Shown here: one piece after another, positions 2,101 through 59,634 of the stretch | Position numbering within the stretch: position 1 is the stretch's first letter | Layout of the letters: every line of letters starts with the position of its first letter | Assembly: GCA_963707865.1 (NCBI GenBank) | Contig: OY970175.1 | Coordinates: 694,028 to 758,027, forward strand | Reading direction: 5' to 3' | DNA length: 64,000 nt | Source of the DNA: an uncultured bacterium | GTDB taxonomy: Bacteria; Patescibacteriota; Minisyncoccia; UBA6257; 2-01-FULL-56-20 | Position numbers and translations under genes: made by a program | The notes under the pieces: generated by a model | Seen by the model: the letters and a program-made list of their open reading frames with translations, nothing else | The model's database searches: none | Told to the model about the DNA's origin: nothing

Positions 2101-3111
2101 TTAAAGTTTTTTTATCCAAACCAATTTCCCTTTTAAAAATTGCAGAAAAGAACAAAGCAAAAATTCCATGGTGATTTTTTTACTTTTTTCCGACCCTGTC
2201 TCTGCTATAAAATCAATCATCTTATTTTTGTCTTGCTCCCATCTTTTCCATCCATCAGAGACCGATATTTTGGAATTCCGCAGAACGTCAGCAAAATGAC
2301 TGAAGTCAATATAACGCCTCTTTGCATCAAATAAATAACCGTTACGTCCGTCTTGAATGTATTCATTCATGGTGCCTTCGTTATACGCGACGACAACCTT
2401 CCCCATAGCCATTGCCTCCAGAAAGCTCATTCCAATCCCTTCCTTTTTCCTCGGCGCAATAAAAACGTCGGCAGCGTCGAGAAGCCGGAGGTAATCCTCT
2501 CGAGAATCGGCCTCAGAATTTCTTACTATTTCCATTTTATACTTTTTAATATCTGCTTCCGAAATTACCTCTTCCTTAAAAAACGGATCCGGCGCAGATC
2601 GATAGACAAGACGATTCACGTCCTTCGTGTCCAAAATTCTTTTAAGGTCGGAGAATTTAATGCCGCCGCGATACCAAAAAAGGAAATTTAACTTCTTTGC
2701 CGACTCCGCGTTGCGAAAATTCGGAGGCAAGTAATATTGTAAAGGCAACACCTCGATGCCAAACGTTTTGCACTTCTTATATATAACATCCGAGAACGAT
2801 ACCACCCGTACAGGCAGGCGCGATAAGGAACTCCAGTAGATATCCCGCAGGGACACCCCGTCATACATTGGCGCCCATATTATTTTCGCCGTTATCTTCC
2901 TTAACTGCCATAGGGGCAAAATCGATTGCAAAAAAAATACACGCGCATAGGTATTGGTCAGATCCACTGACGGCCCCTTTCCGCCCCACCAAGTATCATC
3001 CCAAAAAATATCAACCTCAAAATGTTTCTGCAAAGTGCTCGTCACAAATTTTGTCGACTCTGTCTTTTTGTGGAAAGAATGATCAACAAAAAGAATTTTG
3101 GGCTCGCCCAT
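2101..3111 (-). CDS. Glycosyltransferase (GT1/GT4-like C-terminal domain)
   Basis: The C-terminal region EGIGMSFLEAMAMGKVVVAYNEGTMNEYIQDGRNGYLFD resembles the GT-B nucleotide-sugar binding domain. The N-terminal part is not assignable. Confidence 0.55.
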   Translation of the reverse strand: MGEPKILFVDHSFHKKTESTKFVTSTLQKHFEVDIFWDDTWWGGKGPSVDLTNTYARVFFLQSILPLWQLRKITAKIIWAPMYDGVSLRDIYWSSLSRLPVRVVSFSDVIYKKCKTFGIEVLPLQYYLPPNFRNAESAKKLNFLFWYRGGIKFSDLKRILDTKDVNRLVYRSAPDPFFKEEVISEADIKKYKMEIVRNSEADSREDYLRLLDAADVFIAPRKKEGIGMSFLEAMAMGKVVVAYNEGTMNEYIQDGRNGYLFDAKRRYIDFSHFADVLRNSKISVSDGWKRWEQDKNKMIDFIAETGSEKSKKITMEFLLCSFLQFLKGKLVWIKKL

Positions 3112-3119
3112 GTTCTTAT

Positions 3120-4212
3120 TTACTGGTGTTTCTTTTTAGAAAGAGAGGCTCCGATTAACTTATTAAGAATTTCCACGATTCTCAGTTCCCCTCCTTTGCC
3201 TCGATTTGATAGCATGTTGATCACGTCGTTCCTGTTGAACTGCGCCGGATTGACCTCTCGCAATGTTTTCCATAAATATTTTCCTAACGTCGAGGAGTCC
3301 AAGGTGTCTTCTTTTGCATTATATTTCAGCAACAACGGCAGTAAAAGACGCGGCGCCCAGATGCGCGATGCGAGCACCGAAAAATAGTAGAATCCGCTCT
3401 GGTAATGAATAAAGGGTATCCTCCGACCTTTATAAATCAAATGGCCTTCCTCATCGCTCGCAACCTTCGCCGCTGCCCGATTCGGCATATAGGCATCCAT
3501 CTGAAAAAAGCTCAATGGATTTTGGACATAATAGAAACCGCTCTTGACGATTGGGGGGGGCATTTTCCTGAAAAATTTTTCCGGAAGATATCAGATATTC
3601 AAGAAAATCCTGATCGCTCCCGAGAGGTTCCCGATAGAGCGAGGCGTTAAATTTCTCATGGTCATGAGCCCGGCACTCTTCTTTGGTTATGCCGCCGTTT
3701 TTTAAATATTCTTTTACGTTGCTGTTCAGTTTCCCTAGTTCGCGATCATAGGTCTCAAACCATCCCTTTCGGGAAATGGTAAGAAAACAAGGGCAATCAA
3801 GCGTCATGAAGGTGAGCCCCTTCGTTTTCTCCGCAAGTTCATTGAGGGAAATATAAAGCGCCATGTCGCTGTCAAGATGCCAAAATTGGCCCGCATCGTA
3901 TTTTTCCCGATAGTCCTTGAACGCTATCCAGCGCAGAAAGCAGTTTCTTTCATAGCGGCTGTAGTGCGCGTCTATATTCGGATATCTTCCGACAATGGCG
4001 CCGAATTCTTCCGTAAAATCGACAACGTCTATGCTCCTTTCGGACAGCTCCCGCAGATAGTTTTGCGAGAGGCTCTCAAAGCCCTCCAAAAGAAGCACCT
4101 TGATTCTTTCTTGGGAATGAAACCTCAAGAGGGAATCTCCAAGGGCCGTGAGAGGGATGTTTTCCTTAAATCGCCGCTCTCCCTTCAGGCACCACGCAGA
4201 GGTGTAAAACAT
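3120..4212 (-). pseudogene. Hypothetical glycan-cluster gene split by a frameshift at a G8/C8 homopolymer
   Basis: Two ORFs, 3451..4212 and 3120..3563, overlap by 113 nt in different frames. Both frames pass through the run of eight G at 3553-3560 (C8 on the coding strand). With seven C the frames fuse: ...FQENAPP-IVKSGFYYVQ... to give one protein of ~361 aa. Confidence 0.5.
3553..3560. repeat. G8 (C8 on coding strand) homopolymer tract at the frameshift point
   Basis: Seen directly: ttgggggggg cat at 3551-3563. Confidence 0.9.
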
Positions 4213-4282
4213 CGTTCATACTATCATGATATTTTTCCCTTTATAAAACAAGGGATTGGGGCGGCAGGGCGCGCAAGAACGC

Positions 4283-5659
4283 CTATTGCCGCCCTCGCAC
4301 GATCGCGAGGAGAGTGTCCATGTAATTCCCGGCATTATGATATTTTACCCAATTAAGCATGCATGCGTGTGCGCGCTTTTTTGCATCTTCTGAATTTTCC
4401 AGGTAAGAGAGCATCGCCCTCCCAAGAGACCCTTCGTCATCCAAGCGGAATAATACTCCTCCGCTCTTGTATTTCACAAACTCGCGTTCCATCCACGTAC
4501 CCACCGGGATAATCACTGATTTGCCGAAAGCCAGCGCTTCGCCGAAAATTCCCGATGTCTGCGCATGATAGCTTTCCGCGGTATAGGGAATCACGACGGC
4601 ATCCGCCCGCAGCAAAAGCCCGTAATATTCTTTCGTGTCCAATACCCGACCAATGATTTCCACCCCGCCCCCCATGGCAAGCAACTCCCTTTTCGCCTGC
4701 ATGACCCGCTCCCTCGGATACTTCAGGCAATTGGACTGAATCAAAAACCTTATCTGCCGGGATTTCCTGTTCGCGGTTACAAAATCGATCGCCGCAGGAA
4801 GCAAATGATATCCCTTCCTCTCGGCCGCATGTCCGATGTAAACAAAGGTTTTCGCATTCGTCGGCGATGCCGGCGCCTTGCGAGGCAGAACGGGGGTGTT
4901 CGGCATGGGCAGGACATGAACCTTGCGCCGGGCCATGGTTCTATACTCTTCCTCCAAGACATCGCTGTCGGTCGTAAAAAAAATCTTTCCGCTGCCCGGC
5001 AACCGCTCCAAAAGCTTTATCAAAAATTTGTAGAAATAGTACGATGGCATAGGCTTTTTAGGATGGCCATACTGCATCGTGGCATACCGAAACAGCAGCA
5101 CCAGCCAGGGCCGCTCGGCCAGCGCGAATGAGCGATACCAGAGATACAGCGCGACGAGCGAGGTCTGGCTCAAGGTATGGACCAGCACGATGTCATCGCT
5201 TGCAAAAGGCCCCTTGCCGACTTTTTTTAAATCGCTCAAAAACGACCGGTTCCCCGCAATCGCATCGAGGGCTCCGTTCAAATGCAAGAACTTATTTGCC
5301 AATTGGGGGATGCGCACCGACGAATAATATTCGCGCGGATCAATGGAAAACGCAGGAACGATGTTGAACTTTGTTCTTACTGCTTCGTCGTCCACGGGCG
5401 TACAATAAATGCTCGCTTCGTTTCCCCGCCCAACCCATTCTTCATATACCGACCTGGTGTATTCAAAATGATGTCCCACCTTGCTCGCGAATCCGTTGTC
5501 GAGAATATGGAGTTTCATGCTAGTGTTCTTTTGAGGAAAGGCTTCCTTTTGCGATCGCGATGGCCATTTGAAGTCCCTGCTCCAGTGAAATCTTTGGCTG
5601 CCATCCAAGGCACTTGACCGATGGTTCACTGAAGGGCGGCGGACCTTCTTTATCGCCAA
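4283..5659 (-). CDS. Glycosyltransferase, GT4 family
   Basis: The likely start is MKLHILDNGF at 5518, abutting the upstream gene end. The C-terminal GT4 motifs are ...ESYHAQTSGIFGEALAFGKSVIIP... Confidence 0.75.
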   Translation of the reverse strand: MAIKKVRRPSVNHRSSALDGSQRFHWSRDFKWPSRSQKEAFPQKNTSMKLHILDNGFASKVGHHFEYTRSVYEEWVGRGNEASIYCTPVDDEAVRTKFNIVPAFSIDPREYYSSVRIPQLANKFLHLNGALDAIAGNRSFLSDLKKVGKGPFASDDIVLVHTLSQTSLVALYLWYRSFALAERPWLVLLFRYATMQYGHPKKPMPSYYFYKFLIKLLERLPGSGKIFFTTDSDVLEEEYRTMARRKVHVLPMPNTPVLPRKAPASPTNAKTFVYIGHAAERKGYHLLPAAIDFVTANRKSRQIRFLIQSNCLKYPRERVMQAKRELLAMGGGVEIIGRVLDTKEYYGLLLRADAVVIPYTAESYHAQTSGIFGEALAFGKSVIIPVGTWMEREFVKYKSGGVLFRLDDEGSLGRAMLSYLENSEDAKKRAHACMLNWVKYHNAGNYMDTLLAIVRGRQ

Positions 5660-35152: not shown

Positions 35153-35466
35153 GGTGGAGACGGGCGGAATCGAACCGCCGTGTAAAGGTAATGCGCGTGG
35201 GCCGTCTACGAGCGTGTCTAGTGGAACACTAGCAACGTGATCCTAATTTTCGCGCGTGGCATAGGATCGTCCGCCGCGGCTAGTCCCCTTATATAAGACC
35301 GGCTATGAGCCCAAGGAACCCGGGCTCGCCGATCCCGGCATTACGCGTAAGCGAACGCCGGAGCTGTAACTCTATTAGAGTTGGCAGTTATGTTTGTGCA
35401 GCAGTTACGTCGCTGCCCTCGGCCCGCAAACCCACTGCTTACCTTTATCAAAGCCAGTGCGTCCCC
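35153..35466 (-). ncRNA. ssrA: tmRNA (ssrA), ~314 nt
   Basis: Hand-derived. 5' GGGGACG pairs with 3' CGUCUCCACC, giving the G3:U70 alanine identity pair. T-arm GGCGG-UUCGAUU-CCGCC. Ends ...CUCCACC with the terminal A not encoded. A candidate tag reading frame is GCC AAC UCU AAU AGA GUU ACA GCU CCG GCG UUC GCU UAC GCG UAA (ANSNRVTAPAFAYA). A candidate promoter is TTCACA-17-TATAAT at 35484-35512 on minus. Confidence 0.75.
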
Positions 35467-35584
35467 TTTCAAATTGCCCCGCCATTATAGCGCAAATCGT
35501 AAACAGTGTGAAGCACGGCGAACATCTTTTGGCTTTGTGGAACCGTGCGGAGGCCGAGTAAAAAAATCCGCGAGTGAATAGAAA

Positions 35585-35630: not shown

Positions 35631-35689
35631 GTTATGAGCGAGCCGGATTTTCGCGAGGCCGGAGAGGGTTCCACAAAGCCAAAAGATGT

Positions 35690-36265
35690 TCACTGCGCCT
35701 CCACCACTTTCTGCACATTCGCACGCTTTAGCAACTCCGCCTGCAGCCACTCCGCAAGGTCTTTGTCCATCGCTGGCAGGATCCCTTCCGATTCGTCCTC
35801 GCCGGATTTTTCTTCCTCCTCGCCCGCGGTCAAAATGACGAGCCGGCTCAAGCCAAGCATTTGGAAGGAAAGGTTTCTTCCTATGTCCACGTTCTGGATC
35901 TGGCGGTACGGGATCGCGGTTTCTTCTTTGTTCAAAACTCCATTTTTAATCTTCAGCGCATCGTCGCCAAGATAAAATTTGTAGTTCCTATAAATGAGCC
36001 ATGTAATCAAAAAAGTGGCGGCGGCAACCAACGCAAAGACGAGAAACGCAACCCACGTGGAAAAACTGACATAGGAACTGAGATCAACGGAAAAAACATT
36101 TTTTAAAAATGGCTGCCCTTGAAGTACGAAGAGGGCGATTGCAATGAGCAAAAAAACGGCAGCGGCATGTATCCGGTCCAGAAGAAAAATCACGAAGGTC
36201 TTCTTCCCAAGTGTGTGATACACTTCCTGCGGAACGCCGGGATGGTTCACTGGTTTCTCGTCCAT
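35690..36265 (-). CDS. Membrane-flanked bacterial PH-domain protein (YdbS/YdbT-like)
   Basis: Two TM helices, then a soluble domain, with an acidic C-terminal tail. Pattern of bPH_2 / DUF304 proteins. Confidence 0.45.
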   Translation of the reverse strand: MDEKPVNHPGVPQEVYHTLGKKTFVIFLLDRIHAAAVFLLIAIALFVLQGQPFLKNVFSVDLSSYVSFSTWVAFLVFALVAAATFLITWLIYRNYKFYLGDDALKIKNGVLNKEETAIPYRQIQNVDIGRNLSFQMLGLSRLVILTAGEEEEKSGEDESEGILPAMDKDLAEWLQAELLKRANVQKVVEAQ

Positions 36266-44260: not shown

Positions 44261-44343
44261 ATTTTTGTAGTCACGCACATACCTGGAACCATAATGTGCC
44301 TAGTTACTGCACTTCGGGATGCTGGACTGTAACGATTCGCGGC

Positions 44344-44388
44344 GAGCGGCAAGAAAAAATTCTCGCAGGAAGAATTTTATTCTGGCTC
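44344..44388. repeat. 45-nt conserved hairpin motif, copy 1 (second copy at 59563-59607)
   Basis: gagcggcaagaaaaaattCTcgcaggaAGaattttattctggctc versus copy 2 ...ttGCcgctggaGCaatt... The two differences are compensatory, which preserves the stem. Confidence 0.6.
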
Positions 44389-44413
44389 TTCAAAAGGATA
44401 TTTGCTTCTTGCT

Positions 44414-44698
44414 GTGTGCTTATATGAGACTGCTCGAGAGTATTTTATCCAAAATTCCTGAATTTTGATACCCCTCTTACCCCTTCAAATACCCCTTCAA
44501 TTGCCCTGCATCGAATTGAAGGGGTAGCAAGTCCAGTTTGCTCTGCAAACTCTGATCTTTTCGACCCTCGTCTCTGAAAATCACAAGTCCTACTTCACTC
44601 CGCTAGACCCCCTCCGAAATGGTGTGCTCAGCCCCTCAGCCGCTCACTTACGTTCGGGCTTCGGGGCTTCGCGTATGGCGCGCCCAAATTCCTCCCCC
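44414..44698. repeat. 285-bp perfect inverted repeat, left copy (IR-L)
   Basis: Checked by hand. The reverse complement of 44414-44698 equals 47876-48160 base for base across all segments compared. Confidence 0.9.
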
Positions 44699-44958
44699 AA
44701 CCCCTCCTTTGAGGCGCGCTAAGAGGTGGTAGTTCCACGCTTTGCGACCCTATTCCTGTCCATAGGGCAATACCACGTCTTAGCGTGTCTGACCCTCCAG
44801 AAAGCGGTTTCTTGCCCTTGCCCCAGCCCTCCCATTGCGCGGGCAAGAGTCATTAAAACTCCCTTAAAAGAAGCTTGTCCTTTCAGCTTTGAATAGCGAT
44901 AATTTTGGGATGAAAATTATCAAAAAATCGAGTATGATTACCTTAAATCTTACTCGCC

Positions 44959-45768
44959 ATGAAACAATCAGCCACAACAAGGAAATTATCGCTCCCTCCG
45001 ACCAAGCGGGCCCCGAAAGCCCCAAAATTTTCCAAGAAATTTGTGAATAAAATCCTTTGCGGCGATGCCATCGAGCTTATGCGAGAGATACCCGACGGCG
45101 CGGTTGATCTCGTTGTAACTTCGCCGCCATATAACCTTAAAAATTCCACCGGCAACGGAATGAAGGATGGGCGCGGTGGGAAGTGGGCCAATGCCGCCCT
45201 GCAAAACGGATACAGCAATCACGACGACTGTATGCCGCACGACAAATATGTGAAGTGGCAGAGAGATTGCCTAAAGGAGATGATGCGAATTATCCCGGAG
45301 GATGGCGCGATTTTCTATAACCATAAATGGCGCGTTCAGGGAGGTTTGCTACAAGATCGGCAGGATATTGTCGGCGGATTCCCGGTTAGGCAGATCATCA
45401 TTTGGAAACGGAAGGGCGGCTTAAATTTTAACGCCGGATATTTCTTGCCGACTTATGAAGTCATTTATCTTATCGCCAAACCGAAATTCAAACTAGCGAC
45501 GAAAGCGAACGCGCACGGCGATGTTTGGGAGTTTACGCAGGAGATGAATAACGAACATCCGGCCGCTTTTCCCGTAGCTCTAATTGATCGGATAGTTTCC
45601 GCAACGGACGCTAAAACTATTCTCGACCCTTTCATGGGTTCGGGCACGACGGCACTTTCTGCGATAAATTTTAAGCGAGATTATATCGGCATTGATATTT
45701 CGCCAGAGTATTGCGAGATGGCCGAAAAGAGAATTAAGAAACATAAAGCTCAATCGCGGCTCTTATAA
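44959..45768 (+). CDS. Type II DNA methyltransferase, beta-class amino-MTase (SPPY; likely N4-cytosine, M.MvaI/M.BcnI-like)
   Basis: Motif IV DLVVTSPPYNL precedes motif I ILDPFMGSGTT (beta permutation, N6_N4_Mtase). It is immediately upstream of the REase candidate. Confidence 0.8.
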   Translation: MKQSATTRKLSLPPTKRAPKAPKFSKKFVNKILCGDAIELMREIPDGAVDLVVTSPPYNLKNSTGNGMKDGRGGKWANAALQNGYSNHDDCMPHDKYVKWQRDCLKEMMRIIPEDGAIFYNHKWRVQGGLLQDRQDIVGGFPVRQIIIWKRKGGLNFNAGYFLPTYEVIYLIAKPKFKLATKANAHGDVWEFTQEMNNEHPAAFPVALIDRIVSATDAKTILDPFMGSGTTALSAINFKRDYIGIDISPEYCEMAEKRIKKHKAQSRLL

Positions 45769-45770
45769 TC

Positions 45771-46568
45771 ATGGCAAAGAAACCCGTTATTTATACAAAA
45801 CCATCGTTGATAGCGAAGCTCAAAGAAATCGCCGCGATGGGTTGGATACCGAATGCCCGACGAGGCAACGCCGGAGGCGTAGGTAATACGCTTGAAGACC
45901 TGCTTGGCATAAGAGAAAATAACTTGCCGATTCCCAACGCCGCAGAGTGGGAACTGAAAGCGCAGAGAATAAATACCACGTCGCTCACAACTTTATTCCA
46001 TATCGAGCCATCGCCCCGCGCCATCGGTTTTGTGCCAAAAGTTTTGTTGCCATTGTACGGATGGCCCCACGAAGAAGCAGGGAAGAAATACGGAAAAAAC
46101 GAGATGAGTTTTCGCCAAACGATTCACGGCGGATCGCGGAGCGACAGAGGTTTTAAGGTTGTGATAGATCGCAAAGAGAAAAAGATTTTAATCTCGTTCG
46201 ACGCGAAAAGTGTTGATCCAAGACATAAGACCTGGCTCGAATTAGTTAAAAAGCGCGTGGGCTTAGGCGAACTTAATCCCCAACCATATTGGGGATTCGA
46301 TGATTTAGAACATAAAGCCGGAACGAAATTGCTTAACGCTTTTTACGTTCAGGCGGAGGTGAAGATAGAGCGCAAGAAGGAATTTTATAAATATACGAAA
46401 GTGATGATGCTACAAAAATTTAGTTTCGACGGATTTTTGAAAGCGTTGGAGGAGGGTAAGATACTCGTTGATTTCGATGCTCGCACAGGCCACAATCACG
46501 GAACGAAATTTAGAATGAGGCAGGATTGCTTGCCGATGCTTTACGAGAAAAACACCATCATTTTATGA
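45771..46568 (+). CDS. Type II restriction endonuclease, MvaI/BcnI-like (recalled family similarity)
   Basis: Starts 3 nt after the MTase stop. The pattern GGVGNTLEDLLGIRENN...EWELKAQR...LTTLFHIEP matches my recollection of the MvaI/BcnI family N-terminal region. Those enzymes pair with N4mC SPPY MTases. This is not database-verified. Confidence 0.5.
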   Translation: MAKKPVIYTKPSLIAKLKEIAAMGWIPNARRGNAGGVGNTLEDLLGIRENNLPIPNAAEWELKAQRINTTSLTTLFHIEPSPRAIGFVPKVLLPLYGWPHEEAGKKYGKNEMSFRQTIHGGSRSDRGFKVVIDRKEKKILISFDAKSVDPRHKTWLELVKKRVGLGELNPQPYWGFDDLEHKAGTKLLNAFYVQAEVKIERKKEFYKYTKVMMLQKFSFDGFLKALEEGKILVDFDARTGHNHGTKFRMRQDCLPMLYEKNTIIL

Positions 46569-47833
46569 AAACTAGGCTAGAGGCGAAAAAGGCTAGTTGG
46601 CTAAATAAGTACAAAGGAGATATCGAGCTAGAGCCTTTCTTTCAGAGAGGAACAGTTTGGAGCGATGATAAAAAACAGTATTTTATAGACTCGCTTTTAA
46701 AGGGCTGGGGAACGCCAAAAATTTTCCTTTGGGAAACGGGTAAAGATTCTTATGCCTGTTTAGATGGCAAACAGCGTTTGACCAGTCTATTTAAATTTAT
46801 GGCCGACAGACTGCCATTAAAAGAAGATTATTCTACTGGATATGGCGGTAAAAAATATACCGAGTTACCAGTTAGCGTCCAAGATGCGATCGACGATTAT
46901 GAATTTTCGGTAGAAATATTAGAAGCCAAAGACGACGAAGTGATAGAACTCTATAAGAGGTTACAAGGGGGCACTCCTTTAAATTTCGGAGAGAAGTTAT
47001 TTGCGATGTCGGGAAATATGAACGATTTTATTAAACGCCGGCTAAACACAAAAACATTCTTTAAGGAAAGAGTATCGCTTCCAGATACTAGATACTCGCA
47101 CTATGCTGTTTGCGCGCAATTATGCTTATTGAGCATAAAAGGCGCAAAAGAAGACTTGAAGCTAAAGAACCTAGAGAAGTTTTTTAGAGATTATCGCGGC
47201 TTCAATACCAAGAGCCCTGAAGCAGATAAAATTTTCGACGTTATAAAACATCTTGAAAAGGCGTTCCCTAACAAGAGCGATCCGGCCCTACGAAATAGGG
47301 CGAATGTCGTATCTATATTTCATCTAATAGCAGATATATCTGCGCGTGGCGATATTTCCGGGAGAGAAGAAGAAATAGGTGCGTTCTTTAGAAAATTTGT
47401 GAAGGATATTCAGAAAGAGTTTGATAAAAAGCCCGAGAACCGCGATCCCGCCATATTGAGTTATCAATCGGCGGTTACGCAAGGAGCAGACAAAATTAAG
47501 TCTATTAATATCAGGCACGGCGTTTTATTAAAAAAACTTGAGTCGAAAAATAAATTTTTCTATGGCCTTCTTCATCCAGCTTCTCCGCAGGACAAATTTA
47601 TGAAAATGTATAACGACGCACGAAAGAAGCTAAGGATCACCACTGTTGGTGGATTTGATGCGTGGCTTATTAGTAATAAAGGCCTGTCAGATATAGGGTG
47701 CTCGAAAGCTCGTGCTGGAACGGAAACTTTTATAGGACATATTCGCAATTGTATCCATTATTCTGAACATGGAACTGTTCCAGTAAAGGACTTAGATAGG
47801 GCCATCAAAATTTTGAAAGAGATATTAAGGTAA
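46565..47833 (+). CDS. DUF262-domain protein (GmrSD / ParB-like nuclease family; candidate type IV restriction or defence nuclease)
   Basis: ATG overlaps the REase stop (ATGA). The N-terminal DUF262 hallmark is ...YACLDGKQRLTSLFKF... (the DGQQR motif). The C-terminal region is compatible with a DUF1524/His-Me-like domain. Confidence 0.65.
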   Translation: MKTRLEAKKASWLNKYKGDIELEPFFQRGTVWSDDKKQYFIDSLLKGWGTPKIFLWETGKDSYACLDGKQRLTSLFKFMADRLPLKEDYSTGYGGKKYTELPVSVQDAIDDYEFSVEILEAKDDEVIELYKRLQGGTPLNFGEKLFAMSGNMNDFIKRRLNTKTFFKERVSLPDTRYSHYAVCAQLCLLSIKGAKEDLKLKNLEKFFRDYRGFNTKSPEADKIFDVIKHLEKAFPNKSDPALRNRANVVSIFHLIADISARGDISGREEEIGAFFRKFVKDIQKEFDKKPENRDPAILSYQSAVTQGADKIKSINIRHGVLLKKLESKNKFFYGLLHPASPQDKFMKMYNDARKKLRITTVGGFDAWLISNKGLSDIGCSKARAGTETFIGHIRNCIHYSEHGTVPVKDLDRAIKILKEILR

Positions 47834-47875
47834 AAATTTTTGCTCCCGGCCATGCGGCCGCGAGCTATTTTTTGT

Positions 47876-48160
47876 GGGGGAGGAATTTGGGCGCGCCATA
47901 CGCGAAGCCCCGAAGCCCGAACGTAAGTGAGCGGCTGAGGGGCTGAGCACACCATTTCGGAGGGGGTCTAGCGGAGTGAAGTAGGACTTGTGATTTTCAG
48001 AGACGAGGGTCGAAAAGATCAGAGTTTGCAGAGCAAACTGGACTTGCTACCCCTTCAATTCGATGCAGGGCAATTGAAGGGGTATTTGAAGGGGTAAGAG
48101 GGGTATCAAAATTCAGGAATTTTGGATAAAATACTCTCGAGCAGTCTCATATAAGCACAC
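47876..48160. repeat. 285-bp perfect inverted repeat, right copy (IR-R)
   Basis: Reverse complement of IR-L (44414-44698). The two copies flank the MTase-REase-DUF262 cassette. Confidence 0.9.
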
Positions 48161-48328
48161 CAAGATAAGATTTTCCTCAACTCTACCAATTTTTTCGCGC
48201 GCCGCGCGGAGCGCGGCATAATGCGGCACGGGGGTAAATTCGATTTCTCTATTCCTCAGAGATACGTTCGAGCCGAAAATTTTTTGTACGGATGTCTTTT
48301 TGAGGGAGAGGGTGGGGGTAAGAGAGAT
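48158..48328. repeat. 171-bp inverted duplicate of the tRNA-Arg 3' tip plus the recombinase 3' end
   Basis: The reverse complement of 51003-51173 equals 48158-48328 (checked by hand). The copy begins with CACCA, which is the tRNA-Arg 3' end. It overlaps the outer end of IR-R by 3 nt. Confidence 0.85.
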
Positions 48329-48333
48329 AGCTA

Positions 48334-49416
48334 TTAAAGCTCCTCGGATTTTTTAAGACGAAGGCGAGCCAGTTCTCTAAGGTCAAATTCTTTCTCCGAG
48401 CCTCTTATCCGGCCGCCGATTAATCCAAGATTGTAGGTTATTTCCTCGCTCGTGTTGCGCCAGTTAGTATCCTCAAGCGTTTTGTCGATTAACTTTTTGA
48501 CCTCAATGGGTGCCTTTTCCTTATCGCGTCCGGTTAAGGTGTCTTGAGCGGTGTATGGGAGCATCACCGATCCCCTGAATATTTCCGGCTTGCCGAATAC
48601 CAATTCCGTAAGCCCGTTCTGTTGAAAAACAGGAGTGAGTAGCCCCTGAACTTGGGCGACGCCTAGCACTTTTATCTTCTTGACCGCCTCGTCGATTGCG
48701 ATGTTCTCCGTTGAAAATTCATTTATATAATCCTTGCCGCCTATTTCCCAATTCTCCCTACTGTGATAGTGGCCTGAAACGTATTCTTTGCCTTCTTTCT
48801 CGGTCATGCAGAATATTTCCCTGTCTTTGAGAAAATTTTTATCAACCTTTGGCTTCTTCAGTTTTTCGTCTAGGTCGAGTATGTCATCCTCGTGATGGCC
48901 GCAACTTCCGCAAGTATATGAATCAATGAGCTTGTTTCCTTCGCGGCTGGATTTTTTCTCAAGCGTTGCCTTACACTTTGGGCACGATCGCGGTTCCGGT
49001 CGGTATTCTTCGCCGTCTTGGAAAAATTTGCGTACTTCGCGGCAGTTTTCGCATTTGAAATAGAAAAGGACTCGCTCCTTTTTGCCGTAGCCTTCCATAG
49101 TTTTCTCCACCATATCCATGTCGGAGCGGCATACGAGGCATAGCGCATTGAATTTTGGCCGAGCCTTTTCCAGTTTCTGATTGTATTCTCCAATAGCTTT
49201 TCTGCGATCCCTGATAGCCTCAAATTTATTCGCATACCGCTCGCCGCGCATGAAGTAGAGCGAGACCTTTCCGAACAGAACCCACATCGGGTCATTTTTA
49301 TTCTCCTTGATAGTCTTATCCATTCTCGCCACAAATTTGCGGCACTCCTCGACTGTTTCGCGGTCGTATTCGTCGCTATAAGCGGTGTCGTTCTTATCCG
49401 TTTCTTCGAGGTTCAT
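48334..49416 (-). CDS. Hypothetical protein with two tandem CxxC...CxxC zinc ribbons (function unknown)
   Basis: CLVCRS..(22)..CENCRE and CPKCKA..(20)..CGSCGH, then a ~190-aa C-terminal domain with no recognised family. Co-oriented with the XRE gene directly upstream. Confidence 0.45.
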   Translation of the reverse strand: MNLEETDKNDTAYSDEYDRETVEECRKFVARMDKTIKENKNDPMWVLFGKVSLYFMRGERYANKFEAIRDRRKAIGEYNQKLEKARPKFNALCLVCRSDMDMVEKTMEGYGKKERVLFYFKCENCREVRKFFQDGEEYRPEPRSCPKCKATLEKKSSREGNKLIDSYTCGSCGHHEDDILDLDEKLKKPKVDKNFLKDREIFCMTEKEGKEYVSGHYHSRENWEIGGKDYINEFSTENIAIDEAVKKIKVLGVAQVQGLLTPVFQQNGLTELVFGKPEIFRGSVMLPYTAQDTLTGRDKEKAPIEVKKLIDKTLEDTNWRNTSEEITYNLGLIGGRIRGSEKEFDLRELARLRLKKSEEL

Positions 49417-49422
49417 CTTCGA

Positions 49423-49626
49423 TTACTTGAGCAGGTTATTAACGGAAACGCCTAGAGCCTTAGCAATCTTCTCGACGTTTTTAAGAGAAATATTCCATAT
49501 GCCGCGCTCGATCTGGCTAATATAGGTCGGGTGGACGTTCAAAAGCTTGGCGAGGTCGCCCTGCGACATCCCCTTGTCGAGGCGGAGCCGCTTCATTCTC
49601 TTACCGAATTTGATAGATATATCCAT
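49423..49626 (-). CDS. XRE-family helix-turn-helix transcriptional regulator
   Basis: ...KRLRLDKGMSQGDLAKLLNVHPTYISQIERG... is the classic Cro/CI-type HTH. 67 aa. Confidence 0.8.
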   Translation of the reverse strand: MDISIKFGKRMKRLRLDKGMSQGDLAKLLNVHPTYISQIERGIWNISLKNVEKIAKALGVSVNNLLK

Positions 49627-49706
49627 GCCTATAAGTGCTCTTGTAAATATGGTAACAGGTGCGTTACTATTGTTCTATATAGAGGTAGGCCTCTATAATA
49701 AAAGAT

Positions 49707-51182
49707 ATGCCAAATTATTTTCTCTACGTCAGAAAATCGACCGACGTTGAAGATAAGCAAGTCCGCTCCATCGAAGATCAGCTTGCCGTTCTGCGTACTC
49801 TAGCTAGCACCGAGAAACTTCATATCATTGAGGAGTTTGTCGAGAAGCAGTCCGCGAAAGTGCCCGGCCGGCCAGTTTTTGACGAGATGCTCCGCCGCAT
49901 CGAAAAGGGCGAAGCCTCCGGCATCGTCTGTTGGAAGTTAGATCGTCTCGCTCGCAATCCGGTGGACGGAGGGCAGATAAGTTGGTTCTTGCAGAGGGGC
50001 ATCATCCAGCATATCCAGACTTATGAAAAGAGCTATCGTCCCGCGGATAACGTCATTATGATGAGCGTCGAGTTCGGGATGGCGAACCAGTATATTTTAG
50101 ATTTGAGCGCGAACACCAAACGCGGCCTGATGGAGAAGGTGAAAAGAGGCGAATATCCGTCGCTCGCCCCGATCGGATATATCAACGATCCGCGAAGCAA
50201 AACGGTAATCCTTGATCAGAAAAAGGCTAGCATCATTCGCGGCGCGTTTGAACTCTACGCCGAGGGCAATTCCCGTCTTGGGGACGTATCTGTGTTTTTC
50301 GCAAAGCAAAATTTCTTCTCCAAAATCGGCAACACCTATCATCGGGACAGGATCACCCGTATTCTCTCCAATCCTTTCTATTGCGGCTTTTTCCGCTATG
50401 CCGGAGAGATACACGAAGGCAACCACGAGCCGATCGTTTCAAAGCAACTGTTCGATAAGGTGCAGGATATCCTAAAGAAGAAAGGGCGGCCGCATCACAA
50501 GCAGAAGAACGACCCTCGCCCGTTTTGCGGCCTGTTCCGGTGCGGCGAGTGCGGAATGATGGTAACGGCCGAAGTCCAAAGAAAGCACGCCTATTATCGG
50601 TGCACGAAGAAGTCCTCCATACGCTGTTCCCAGCCCTATATTAGAGAGGAGGTTTTGGATAAACAGCTATCGGATATTCTCAAAAATTTTGCCATGCCCT
50701 CGGCATGGGCGGAGAATTTATCGCACAGAGCGGACAAAGATAGCGAGGAGACCACCCGTTCCGTGGCGGCTTTTGTTCAAGAGTTGCGGTCTCAAATATC
50801 GGACATCAACCGCAAGCTCGAGCGGCTTCTTGAGACGTATTTAGAGCAAGATATCGAACGGGACGTGTACCGAGAGGAGAAGGCAAAACTCCTCTCGTCC
50901 AAGAAGTCGCTTACGGAGCAAATCGCCCGTCTTGAACAAAAGCAAAACGCATGGCTCGAACACTTCCGAGACTGGCTGAAAGACGCACAGAATCTGAACG
51001 AAATCTCTCTTACCCCCACCCTCTCCCTCAAAAAGACATCCGTACAAAAAATTTTCGGCTCGAACGTATCTCTGAGGAATAGAGAAATCGAATTTACCCC
51101 CGTGCCGCATTATGCCGCGCTCCGCGCGGCGCGCGAAAAAATTGGTAGAGTTGAGGAAAATCTTATCTTGGTGCCCTCGTGA
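49707..51182 (+). CDS. Large serine recombinase (integrase/transposase type)
   Basis: N-terminal resolvase catalytic domain (YVRKSTDVEDKQVRSIEDQ..., WKLDRLARN), then the recombinase domain, a zinc ribbon (CGLFRCGECG...YYRC) and a coiled-coil. The last 14 nt of the ORF overlap the tRNA-Arg 3' end. Confidence 0.85.
   Translation: MPNYFLYVRKSTDVEDKQVRSIEDQLAVLRTLASTEKLHIIEEFVEKQSAKVPGRPVFDEMLRRIEKGEASGIVCWKLDRLARNPVDGGQISWFLQRGIIQHIQTYEKSYRPADNVIMMSVEFGMANQYILDLSANTKRGLMEKVKRGEYPSLAPIGYINDPRSKTVILDQKKASIIRGAFELYAEGNSRLGDVSVFFAKQNFFSKIGNTYHRDRITRILSNPFYCGFFRYAGEIHEGNHEPIVSKQLFDKVQDILKKKGRPHHKQKNDPRPFCGLFRCGECGMMVTAEVQRKHAYYRCTKKSSIRCSQPYIREEVLDKQLSDILKNFAMPSAWAENLSHRADKDSEETTRSVAAFVQELRSQISDINRKLERLLETYLEQDIERDVYREEKAKLLSSKKSLTEQIARLEQKQNAWLEHFRDWLKDAQNLNEISLTPTLSLKKTSVQKIFGSNVSLRNREIEFTPVPHYAALRAAREKIGRVEENLILVPS
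51003..51173. repeat. 171-bp repeat, right copy (recombinase 3' end through tRNA-Arg CACCA tip)
   Basis: Inverted partner of 48158-48328. Confidence 0.85.
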
Positions 51183-51243
51183 GGAATTGAACCTCAATCT
51201 TCTCCTTCGGAGGGAGACGTCCTATCCGTTGAACTACGAGGGC
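51169..51243 (-). tRNA. tRNA-Arg (anticodon CCG), CCA encoded
   Basis: Minus-strand read GCCCTCGTAGTTCAACGGATAGGACGTCTCCCTCCGAAGGAGAAGATTGAGGTTCAATTCCTCACGAGGGCACCA. Acceptor 7 bp, anticodon loop CUCCGAA, T-arm TGAGG-TTCAATT-CCTCA. Confidence 0.8.
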
Positions 51244-59473: not shown

Positions 59474-59634
59474 GGGCAGCACTGGCAGGGAGGTTTACGG
59501 CGGATCGCGCAGGCCCGCTCAGCTTGGTCCGAAAACTTTTGCGTGTTTTCGGTAAGCGGGCCGAGCGGCAAGAAAAAATTGCCGCTGGAGCAATTTTATT
59601 CTGGTTCCGTAAACCTCCCTGTCAGTGCTGCCCC
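59474..59634. promoter_or_regulatory. Large structured element between the HK stop and pyrG start (27-bp outer stem enclosing ~106 nt with internal hairpins)
   Basis: Outer arms 59474-59500 and 59607-59633 are complementary with one G.T wobble. Inner hairpins are ccgaaaac-ttttgcgt-gttttcgg and copy 2 of the 45-nt motif (59563-59607). Confidence 0.4.

Follow-up and report, generated by a model that had tools for sequence, protein, structure and literature searches.

A three-gene defence cassette in the genome of an uncultured patescibacterium is bracketed by long, perfect inverted repeats, and the question arises what kind of structure these repeats belong to. The window analysed here is a stretch of 64 kb of this genome. 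An original prediction had proposed either a long-TIR non-autonomous transposon or a site of recombinase-mediated inversion. Our analysis leads to a larger unit: positions 44414–51173 probably constitute an integrative element of 6.76 kb, which a large serine recombinase (LSR) would have placed at the 3′ end of a tRNA-Arg(CCG) gene and which is made up of two inverted-repeat-bracketed modules with an internal inverted copy of attP.

Two abutting pairs of inverted repeats

A repeat search of the window placed the arms of the first pair at 44414–44699 (arm a) and 47875–48160 (arm a′), both given on the plus strand, as are all further arms. They are 100% complementary, separated by a spacer of 3175 nt, and measure 286 nt each, one more than the 285 bp reported before. 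Internal palindromes are indeed present, and the arm as single-stranded DNA folds better than shuffled sequences (z = –4.4). The predicted three-gene defence cassette between the arms was also recovered, with all genes on the plus strand: a type II N4/N6 DNA methyltransferase (44959–45768; PF01555, E = 6e-40; PADLOC MTase_II, E = 1e-121), an MvaI/BcnI-family restriction endonuclease (45771–46568; PF15515, E = 6e-66; PADLOC REase_II) and a GmrSD_N (DUF262) protein (46526–47833; PF03235, E = 3e-16; PADLOC NsnA / PD-T4-2_A). Its GC content is lower, as described, amounting to about 0.39–0.47 over 45400–47800, while the flanks reach 0.52–0.60. No transposase is encoded between a and a′; an LSR gene lies 1.5 kb to the right, within a second repeat pair that the earlier reading did not contain. 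The proposed membership in a mobile, recombinase-related structure was borne out.

The arms of this second pair, 48158–48328 (arm b) and 51003–51173 (arm b′), are 171 nt long and likewise 100% complementary. This pair brackets the LSR gene and directly adjoins the first, the two overlapping by 3 nt, which gives the layout a–cargo–a′|b–recombinase–b′|tRNA. These two pairs are the only inverted repeats longer than 40 nt in the 64-kb window, which contains no further copy of the 286-nt arm.

Three genes form the recombinase module. A 360-aa protein with zinc-ribbon motifs (48334–49416, minus strand) has a weak Zn_ribbon_8 match and no match in PADLOC; a 67-aa HTH protein resembles the control (C) proteins of restriction-modification systems (49423–49626, minus strand; PF01381, E = 2e-17; PADLOC Control_protein, E = 1e-22). 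The 491-aa LSR (49707–51182, plus strand) contains Resolvase, Recombinase and Zn_ribbon_recom domains (PF00239, PF07508 and PF13408, all above curated cut-offs). By sequence match its nearest solved structures are those of A118 integrase and SPbeta SprA, and no annotated phage or plasmid LSR exceeds about 31% identity to it. The last ~57 codons of the gene lie within arm b′, and its stop codon falls within the target gene, tRNA-Arg(CCG) (51169–51243, minus strand; ARAGORN; Rfam tRNA, 65.7 bits), whose final 5 nt (CACCA) come from arm b′.

Since arm b′ is coding, we regard it as the original arm, located at the attR-side end of the island; arm b is a non-coding inverted copy of the recombinase gene 3′ end. 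At the attL-side end, arm a runs on into conserved unique sequence. A conserved non-coding block (44472–44860, plus strand) comprises hairpins and three iteron-like copies of TACCCCTTCAA in addition to an inverted one, and the repeat covers only its first ~225 nt. Because the block continues from a and its distal 160 nt are missing from a′, arm a is taken as the original and a′ as a partial inverted copy. The block is about 90% identical to positions 4904–5290 of a related locus (L011), and for arm a and the block together the identity to L011 is ~85–90%, though the recombinases of the two are only 57% identical. Further homologues of the block were found in L083, L140, L026, L009 and L098; an Rfam search with it gave no match, and covariation was not convincing.

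Arms a′ and b form a contiguous segment of 454 nt (S′, 47875–48328, plus strand) that is the reverse complement of the joined ends b′+a, and the island therefore looks like an integrated circle whose attP region was copied internally in inverted orientation. The assignment of a and a′ as the left and right ends of a transposon is accordingly not supported: the left arm is the attL end, the right one is half of the internal inverted attP copy, fused via a 3-nt core to the second pair. This central overlap (CAC, 48158–48160) implies a GTG core in the attL crossover region (44414–44416), and GTG is present at both island ends (44414–44416 and 51171–51173). The tips of arms a and b are unrelated to each other. 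Arm b also carries a GC hairpin, GCCGCGC-GGA-GCGCGGC (48201–48217; mirror copy in b′, 51114–51130); most loci have a hairpin ~40–45 nt from the boundary, and 42 distinct stem sequences occur among them. The left chromosomal flank (44338–44395, plus strand) resembles a degenerate b′-type end and can be aligned with the b′ ends found in the window and in L022 and L053, while a second copy of it stands at 59557–59607; judging from this resemblance, it may be the scar of an older element.

The tRNA target and its mimic

The tip of arm a contains a 30-nt candidate recombinase half-site (44417–44446, minus strand; PWM 21.3 bits; mirror copy 48128–48157). By its sequence this tip is a mimic of the tRNA T-arm with a 3-nt offset. 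The family consensus reads AAAATAGGTTCGAGC...TCGTATA and the version in the window AAAATACTCTCGAGC..., and the distance between the end of the GGTTCGA motif and the boundary is 13 nt in real tRNAs but 15–17 nt in element tips. In phage serine integrases the shift between attP and attB half-sites is about 5 bp, which differs from the 3-nt offset observed here; structural work on A118 is reportedly the basis for such comparisons of half-site geometry. At 87 loci the recombinase 3′ end abuts a convergent tRNA gene, and 26 anticodons for 12 amino acids are represented among these genes. Canonical integration is seen in a minimal element (L106), X|GGCT–a–rec–b′–GGCT|tRNA-Gln, which has no internal site.

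Conservation of the layout in Patescibacteria

Family counts are based on 127 informative related loci from Patescibacteria. The b/b′ pair is kept in 101 of the 127 eligible loci, and the tip of a′ stands directly beside b in 73 of 87. At least 16 loci have the full double layout (among them L011, L023, L024, L032, L053, L055, L059 and L116, the latter twice, as well as L127, L133, L137, L142, L146, L154 and L140), and in L011 it is found on a closed chromosome of 829 kb. The central a′/b overlap measures 3–5 nt in L011, L023, L024, L032, L053 and L055. The presence of such an overlap in every double locus shows that both pairs were copied together, as a single continuous stretch.

Arm identities across the family range from 84 to 100%. 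The identity between b and b′ drops from 99% at the core to 72% at 140–160 nt (n = 101), in line with the original prediction that the repeat is actively kept identical, and on the b side the central ~90 nt are at least 93–99% identical nearly everywhere in the family. A conserved insertion of 10 nt, frequent in arm b, disrupts the coding frame there and marks b as the copy. The internal copy is kept in ~80% of the loci, although the recombinases are only 50–60% identical; it is missing from ~20% and therefore is not essential. The cargo consists mostly of defence genes. Neither a conserved directionality factor nor phage genes were found in these elements, and the two-part design, common to most of the related islands examined, was not found described in the literature searched.

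Orientation of modules and possible traces of excision

Recombinase-mediated inversion, as proposed originally, was supported in part, at the level of the family: both the cargo and the recombinase module occur in both orientations across related loci. The cargo module runs against the recombinase in 9 loci and with it in 5, and another 3 loci are mixed; in L083 the conserved block is inverted and adjoins b, in contrast to the window and L011. For the recombinase module, 87–88 loci show the standard orientation and 4 the inverted one, tRNA(+)|b...rec...b′|a (L041 together with L031, which overlap by 100%; L071; L075; L158). So strong a bias is not predicted by two fully equivalent attP copies. 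Among pairs of loci that are at least 95% identical, none differed by a flip, so that some of the variation between loci could stem from elements acquired independently in one or the other orientation.

Ten related loci contain intact b′|a junctions, the joint expected of an excised circle, and the sequences of L031 and L100 are circularly permuted relative to each other. One related locus (L159) is a clear tandem array and another (L116) consists of two complete elements facing each other; b′|a junctions could also stem from tandem arrays like that of L159 instead of circles. No closed circle was found among the related loci searched, and this strain yielded no closed circular contig, no empty attB site, no b′|a junction and no orientation variant.

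Every open reading frame remains intact with either orientation of the cassette, and the conserved upstream block is itself part of the segment that would be inverted. A promoter scan, which performed at chance level, found no outside promoter. Given the symmetry of the arms, a flip, which the original prediction expected mainly to change the promoter context, would not obviously affect expression.

Alternative explanations

Long perfect inverted repeats are a known failure mode of assemblers, and one related locus (L128) has 1550-nt palindromic ends that look artefactual. That the assembler made a collapsed or chimeric repeat here, which the original prediction had named as the refuting case, is nevertheless practically excluded, since many related loci have imperfect arms and the same layout is found on the closed chromosome L011; in total it recurs in more than 100 independent assemblies, and further supporting contigs reach hundreds of kilobases. 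Contigs of run ERR10755942 from Logan, used as an independent check and too short to span an arm, match the unique parts of the island at 100%. One of them (L001) reaches 30 nt into arm b before it breaks off, another (L002) ends 16 nt into a′ on the right and 121 nt inside the unique region on the left, and many short-read contigs stop 115–140 nt beyond b, as expected from a real repeat. If the repeat is real, the perfect 286-bp termini without a transposase inside could still be those of an independent long-TIR non-autonomous transposon, located beside the recombinase element and mobilised in trans; the higher identity to L011 of arm a and the block than of the recombinase indeed suggests modular exchange. 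However, no direct repeat, and hence no target-site duplication, stands directly outside 44414 (cttgct) and 48160 (caagat), the window contains no second copy, and a and b have unrelated tips. The short a′/b overlap of every double locus shows joint copying of the pairs, and all a/a′ pairs examined adjoin a b-type arm or, in L116, lie between two complete elements. As the arms do not behave as independent termini, we consider this origin very unlikely.

More weight, though still little, can be given to a phase-variation switch, in which the neighbouring recombinase would flip the restriction-modification/GmrSD cassette on and off within the population. A serine recombinase adjoins the cassette, the outer boundaries of the perfect repeats coincide with putative crossover cores, cargo modules are seen in both orientations across loci, and inversion is a possible mode of action of recombinases located next to defence genes (PMC12529663). 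On the other hand, the two arms do not differ and the operon would take the conserved upstream block along, so that a flip leaves the immediate promoter context unchanged, and the promoter scan gave no outside promoter. The enzyme is an integrase-type LSR of 491 aa with three domains, not a small Hin/Gin invertase (~190 aa with a C-terminal HTH); inversion does not alter which gene or gene end is expressed, and the same architecture surrounds unrelated cargo and the recombinase gene itself. Such a switch is therefore improbable. Slightly less probable again is a functionless by-product, namely an ancient inverted duplication of attP that was homogenised by RecA-dependent conversion and gave rise to incidental inversions. 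The internal copy is missing from about a fifth of the loci and from minimal elements, identity decays smoothly with distance from the core, and inversion between homologous repeats is known in other tRNA-targeted elements (tycheposon preprint). Yet the copy persists in most loci despite diverged recombinases, and the centre of the b side is nearly invariant. The old, lineage-wide 10-nt insertion in arm b has survived conversion, which points to selection on a core-centred segment and not to simple homogenisation.

A model for the two-module element

We therefore favour the LSR-driven integrative element, whose cargo module (a, methyltransferase, endonuclease, GmrSD, a′) and recombinase module (b, 360-aa protein, C protein, LSR, b′) are each bracketed by their own repeat. 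The outer arms are the true ends, arm a holding the P′ half-site and the conserved block and b′ the 3′ end of the LSR gene; in the excised circle their joining at the common GTG core would give rise to the attP region (S). Arms a′ and b, on the inside, copy these ends partially and in inverted orientation, and their fusion at that core makes up the internal inverted attP copy (S′). The anatomy, its conservation in the family and the target are shown by the data; beyond this we infer that the LSR reads the universal T-arm of tRNA genes, the element tip imitating it 3 nt further from the crossover. Strand exchange would then fall within the terminal nucleotides of the tRNA gene, and the element would restore these.

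If S′ is equivalent to S, integration would be possible through either copy, and each module could be inverted, by the LSR or by RecA, through recombination between its flanking sites or arms, resulting in isomers like those of herpes simplex virus or the yeast 2-micron plasmid. Recombination and gene conversion, with the core as their centre, would keep the arms identical. Among possible roles of the internal attP copy, module inversion or isomerisation has the best support. To our knowledge, canonical LSRs recombine neither attP with attP nor attP with attL or attR, so that inversion by the LSR itself is an assumption. A broader proposal, which we put forward tentatively and hold to be possible rather than probable, is that Patescibacteria harbour a large undescribed family of LSR elements that use the 3′ end of nearly any tRNA gene via its T-arm. 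Their internal inverted attP copy would be functional: with it, an integrase that normally works in one direction could act again on attP-like and attB-like sites and so flip or exchange cargo and recombinase modules, or integrate as two isomers, without a directionality factor. More speculatively, the two abutting repeat pairs might let a single strand fold back and rebuild a double-stranded attP.

Comparison with known systems

The phage LSRs (A118/LI Int, Bxb1, phiC31, SPbeta SprA) share with the present elements a three-domain recombinase and a very short core; here the ends have 3–5 nt in common and the target-like half-site has a shifted spacing. Phage enzymes differ in using one gene as target instead of the generic 3′ end of any tRNA gene, and we know of no phage LSR system with an internal inverted attP copy, which here has arms of 100–400 nt. 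SCCmec and related cassettes (CcrAB/CcrC) are cargo carriers that are also moved by LSRs. They insert into the 3′ end of rlmH, a conserved housekeeping gene, can be joined in composite tandem arrays and are bounded by inverted repeats. These repeats span tens of bp, and SCC elements are not known to possess an internal inverted attP copy or a second bracketed module; the elements described here have both, and they target tRNA genes.

In herpes simplex virus, with its class-E genome, two unique segments are bracketed by inverted repeats, the internal joint corresponds to the inverted joined termini, and both orientations occur; the yeast 2-micron plasmid encodes a site-specific recombinase whose target lies within the repeats. 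The likeness is one of architecture (two bracketed segments, with the a′b joint as inverted b′+a) and implies no evolutionary relationship to this bacterial integrative element, whose isomers are observed between loci and not within a population, and whose recombinase module is heavily biased in orientation. Hin, Gin/Mu G, Cin/P1 C and Pin resemble the present island in that a serine recombinase lies near or inside an inverted-repeat segment with crossovers at the repeat boundaries; long repeats, of 0.6 kb, are likewise present in the P1 C segment. Hin-type invertases, however, are small enzymes that act on short crossover sites and switch gene ends, while the LSR-associated flip considered here leaves coding sequences unchanged.

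Tycheposons of Prochlorococcus are small cargo elements at tRNA genes that are stacked by successive integrations and carry defence or adaptive cargo; most use tyrosine recombinases, with direct repeats of ~40 nt of partial tRNA, a minority use LSRs, and repeats promote inversions (bioRxiv 10.1101/2020.12.28.424599). A flanking partial-tRNA repeat of this kind is absent from the elements described here, as their ends share only 3–5 nt, a T-arm mimic takes the place of a tRNA fragment at the distal tip, and the hallmark is the two abutting inverted-repeat pairs. Integration at tRNA genes with stacking is a trait common to both, seen here in the 87 tRNA-adjacent loci, the arrays of L159 and the facing pair of L116.

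Architecture of the Element

The inverted repeat proposed to flank the defence cassette is real, and we show that it brackets the cargo module in a conserved architecture of two modules and two repeat pairs, which belongs to a serine-recombinase element associated with tRNA 3′ ends. Its arms, a (44414–44699) and a′ (47875–48160), are 286 nt long, 100% complementary and separated by a spacer of 3,175 nt. Between them lie three cargo genes, encoding a type II N4/N6 methyltransferase, an MvaI/BcnI-family endonuclease and a GmrSD_N/DUF262 protein. The lower GC content ascribed to the cassette was also observed (about 0.39–0.47 over most of the cassette, 0.52–0.60 outside). When treated as single-stranded DNA, the arm forms a better fold than shuffled sequences do (z = –4.4), and no direct repeat that would mark a target-site duplication was present immediately outside the two arms.

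A whole-window scan revealed a second perfect inverted repeat of 171 nt that was absent from the original prediction (b, 48158–48328; b′, 51003–51173) and begins 3 nt before the end of the 286-nt repeat. Encoded between b and b′ are a 360-aa zinc-ribbon protein (ORF360), a small HTH protein resembling restriction-modification control proteins, and a large serine recombinase of 491 aa (49707–51182, plus strand) with resolvase, recombinase and zinc-ribbon domains. The right arm b′ holds the last ~57 codons of the recombinase and ends 5 nt into a convergent tRNA-Arg(CCG) gene (51169–51243, minus strand), giving the order a – cargo – a′ / b – recombinase module – b′ / tRNA. As a′ and b overlap in CAC (48158–48160), GTG stands at both outer ends (44414–44416 and 51171–51173), and b′ and a joined via one GTG form the exact reverse complement of the central 454-nt a′b segment. 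It is the geometry that results when a circle carrying the same segment twice, in opposite orientations, is opened at one copy by integration beside the tRNA gene. The mobile unit is probably the whole 44414–51173 segment, with the outer arms as attL- and attR-side ends and the inner arms, with similar likelihood, as an inverted copy of the attP region. From the window we predict the sequence that the b′/a junction (...CTTATCTTGGTGTGCTTATATGAG...) and the empty site (...TTGCTTCTTGCTGTGCCCTCGTGAGG...) would have.

Two other readings were considered. One took the recombinase module alone, circularised through a palindromic b′/b junction, as the mobile unit; it was rejected because no palindromic dinucleotide occurs in the core and because this core is present at both outer ends in direct orientation. 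Two inverted element copies forming a composite round the cargo were rejected as well, since the cores lie distal and not proximal to the cargo. A collapsed misassembly, the concern raised about the repeat, is ruled out by arm identities of 84–100% in relatives and by the many short-read contigs that stop 115–140 nt past arm b.

The same strain (100% identity) was found in an independent public run, ERR10755942, as the Logan contigs L001, L002 and L163. The ends of L002 and L163 lie at 44820 and 44379, not at repeat edges, which hints at local variation or low coverage there. Exact-protein look-ups with the recombinase, the GmrSD protein and the right-flank membrane protein gave no match, and those with ORF360, the endonuclease and the left-flank protein returned short Logan contigs of one run only, too short for an arm.

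Over 51171–51182 the recombinase frame crosses the crossover core and reaches its stop codon within the tRNA gene. After excision the frame would instead enter arm a for 15 codons, so that the recombinase C-terminus would differ between the integrated and the excised state. ORF360 (48334–49416, minus strand), located behind the control-protein-like HTH gene (49423–49626, minus strand), contains several CxxC zinc-ribbon motifs but matches no protein family. It may encode a nuclease or defence protein not yet characterised, with the C protein as its regulator.

A Family of Related Loci in Patescibacteria

The recombinase has 136 confirmed relatives in species-representative genomes, almost all from Patescibacteria, and at least 581 in one scan of metagenomes, while its identity to annotated phage or plasmid recombinases is at most ~31%. 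The family is absent from a viral contig collection that was scanned twice without yielding a relative, first with one protein sequence as query and then with an alignment. Among 160 retrieved loci (numbered with the prefix L), a convergent tRNA gene abuts the recombinase 3′ end in 87; these tRNA genes represent 26 anticodons and 12 amino acids, and the loci without an adjoining tRNA gene are mostly contig ends. Of 127 eligible loci, 101 have a b/b′ pair in which one arm covers the 3′ end of the recombinase gene, and in 73 of 87 arm b is bordered on its outer side by a conserved tip motif of 30 nt. The full double-repeat layout is seen in no fewer than 16 further elements, including one in a closed 829-kb chromosome (L011), and the central overlap of 3–5 nt was confirmed in the six double-layout loci checked. 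L116 carries two complete elements facing each other. In the metagenome contig L128, perfectly palindromic ends of 1,550 nt (1–1550 and 3102–4651) surround the recombinase module; they are probably an assembler artefact at inverted repeats and serve as a warning for automated analysis of such loci.

The cargo of related elements comprises Type III and Type ISP restriction-modification systems, AbiE, Abi-alpha-like proteins, GmrSD, a reverse transcriptase with lectin-domain proteins, a radical-SAM/thymidylate-kinase/nuclease set, helicases and proteins of unknown function. In L055 (3795–7957) the reverse transcriptase is flanked by lectin and Fib_succ_major-domain proteins, a cargo that resembles a diversity-generating retroelement. 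The family represents a widespread carrier of defence genes in Patescibacteria, a phylum whose genomes are very small and in which few mobile elements have been described. The repeats also help to explain why many short-read contigs in the set break exactly there.

Integration at tRNA 3′ Ends

The minimal relative, L106, is 1.66 kb long and reads flank/GGCT – tip – recombinase – GGCT/tRNA-Gln; it has no internal site and is a canonical serine-integrase attP × attB product. The distal element tips contain a T-loop-like motif (family consensus AGGTTCGAGC, diverged to CTCTCGAGC in the window). In the real tRNA genes the distance from the end of GGTTCGA to the repeat boundary is 13 nt in 38 of 63 cases and 11–13 nt in 55, whereas in element tips the motif ends 15–17 nt, most often 16 nt, from the boundary. 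The element tip therefore mimics the tRNA T-arm, but with the motif some 3 nt farther out, a displacement that may resemble the shift between attP and attB half-sites in phage serine integrases. The boundary falls approximately at the last acceptor-stem base and the discriminator, and these nucleotides are restored by the element. We infer that the recombinase reads the universal T-arm sequence, which would explain its indifference to tRNA identity. A universal T-arm target together with a shifted, element-borne mimic would constitute a simple recognition rule for a serine integrase. Serine integrases are sought as genome-engineering tools; tRNA genes, for their part, provide landing sites that are conserved and present in multiple copies.

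Intact b′/a junctions were found in 10 loci. One contig, L031, is a circular permutation of another, L100, and L159 is a clear tandem array with diverged repeats; a terminal overlap marking a closed circle was found in none of 162 loci.

Original and Duplicated Arms

The interior of arm a together with ~160 nt of unique sequence to its right (44472–44860) is ~90% identical to its counterpart in L011, even though the two recombinases are only 57% identical and the tips differ. As the conserved region runs beyond arm a, this arm belongs to a longer non-coding block, of which a′ is an inverted and truncated copy. The block (~390 nt, with a partial inverted copy in 47875–48100) contains three direct TACCCCTTCAA-like units and one inverted unit, C-rich stretches and hairpins. 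A permissive Rfam search recovered two tRNAs only, with no match in the block or the arms, and a promoter scan remained at chance level. An alignment of four sequences gave no convincing covariation, and we therefore do not call the block an RNA; it may act as a promoter or leader, as a protein-binding array or origin, or as an RNA.

At the other end, b′ is true coding sequence and b is the copy. In many relatives b has a conserved insertion of ~10 nt inside the stretch encoding KIFGSNL, which would break the reading frame (GGCTTTTGAATTCTTGAACC vs. GGCTCGAACC, for example). It occurs in the non-coding arm only (L006, L008, L016, L017, L019, L021, L022, L032, L052 and L158), is absent from arm b of the window, and splits a second T-loop-like motif ~95 nt from the core. 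With a and b′ as originals, the b′/a junction unites the original sequences, and the internal a′/b junction is an inverted partial duplicate.

Maintenance of Arm Identity

The perfect identity of the repeats had been attributed to very recent duplication, gene conversion or active maintenance. Across 101 loci, b and b′ are 99% identical within 40 nt of the core and 97, 94.5 and 93% identical in the following three 20-nt bins; identity falls to 72% by 140–160 nt and to background farther out. The a/a′ arms (14 loci) are 92–100% identical over ~160 nt. This core-centred gradient and the retained old insertion in b speak against recent duplication and favour selection or conversion that acts on a defined segment around the crossover point.

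In most b′ arms a perfect GC-rich hairpin with a stem of 6–10 bp is located 40–45 nt from the core, within the C-terminal coding region of the recombinase (51114–51130 in the window, with its copy at 48201–48217). We counted 42 different stem sequences, and the encoded amino acids vary together with the palindrome. That stems and amino acids change while the hairpin is kept points to a constraint acting at the nucleic-acid level. The hairpin has a T-run on neither side and is thus not a standard terminator.

Isomers and Possible Inversion

The internal inverted attP copy is kept in ~80% of the related loci examined, and several loci differ in module orientation. Cargo operons are mostly unidirectional and point opposite to the recombinase in nine loci, in the same direction in five, and are mixed in three. 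In the closest relative, L083 (71% identity, likewise at tRNA-Arg), the full-length conserved block is on the opposite strand and directly adjoins arm b, so that its cargo module is inverted compared to the window and L011. The orientation of a cargo end common to L029 and L030 is reversed between the two. Inverted recombinase modules were identified in L041, L071, L075 and L158 when plus-strand tRNA genes beside b arms were searched for explicitly; in these loci a b-type arm comes directly after the tRNA gene, and the recombinase is directed away. L041 and L031 overlap with 100% identity and, when merged, read tRNA-Leu/b – module – recombinase – b′/a – cargo, exactly the isomer predicted by integration via the internal copy or by a module flip. 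Isomers therefore plausibly arise because modules invert or because the element integrates through either copy, with the recombinase or homologous recombination as the candidate agents. The standard orientation of the recombinase module nevertheless prevails, with 87–88 standard vs. 4 inverted cases.

To our knowledge, canonical serine integrases would not recombine the site pairs of this element. Unrelated left flanks and the tandem arrays suggest that the non-tRNA half of the target is irrelevant. If so, b′/tRNA would act like attB and a′/b like attP, and their exchange would remake both site types and could make inversion repeatable. We put this forward as a hypothesis; the strong orientation bias speaks against a free equilibrium. 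If an integrase-type enzyme does drive reversible inversion or module exchange with identical exchanged half-sites, this would be a new way round integrase directionality.

Comparison With Known Systems

In its enzyme and its integration logic, the element matches large serine integrases. SCC elements, with a similar lifestyle, are also small, cargo-carrying, stackable and located at the end of a conserved gene. The closest formal parallels in architecture are the herpes simplex virus genome and the 2-micron plasmid, which have no evolutionary relationship to the element; both consist of two repeat-bracketed segments, with an internal joint that is the inverted form of the joined ends and each segment in both orientations. 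Tycheposons share with the element its small size, cargo, location at a conserved gene end and stackability (bioRxiv 10.1101/2020.12.28.424599). In the literature searched, which covered only a minority of subscription journals, neither the family nor an internal inverted attP in a serine-recombinase element is described.

Other Features in the Window

Two stretches that are 84% identical to each other (44338–44395 and 59557–59607) are similar to degenerate b′-type ends, with a hairpin remnant and an A-run followed by AATTTTATTCTGG. The former adjoins the island on its left, and the latter is flanked by a 27-nt inverted repeat (59474–59500 and 59607–59633). Both may be scars of older elements. 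A tmRNA gene is located at 35153–35466 (tag ANSNRVTAPAFAYA), and just downstream of it we observed a 35-nt inverted repeat of 89% identity (35510–35544 and 35667–35701).
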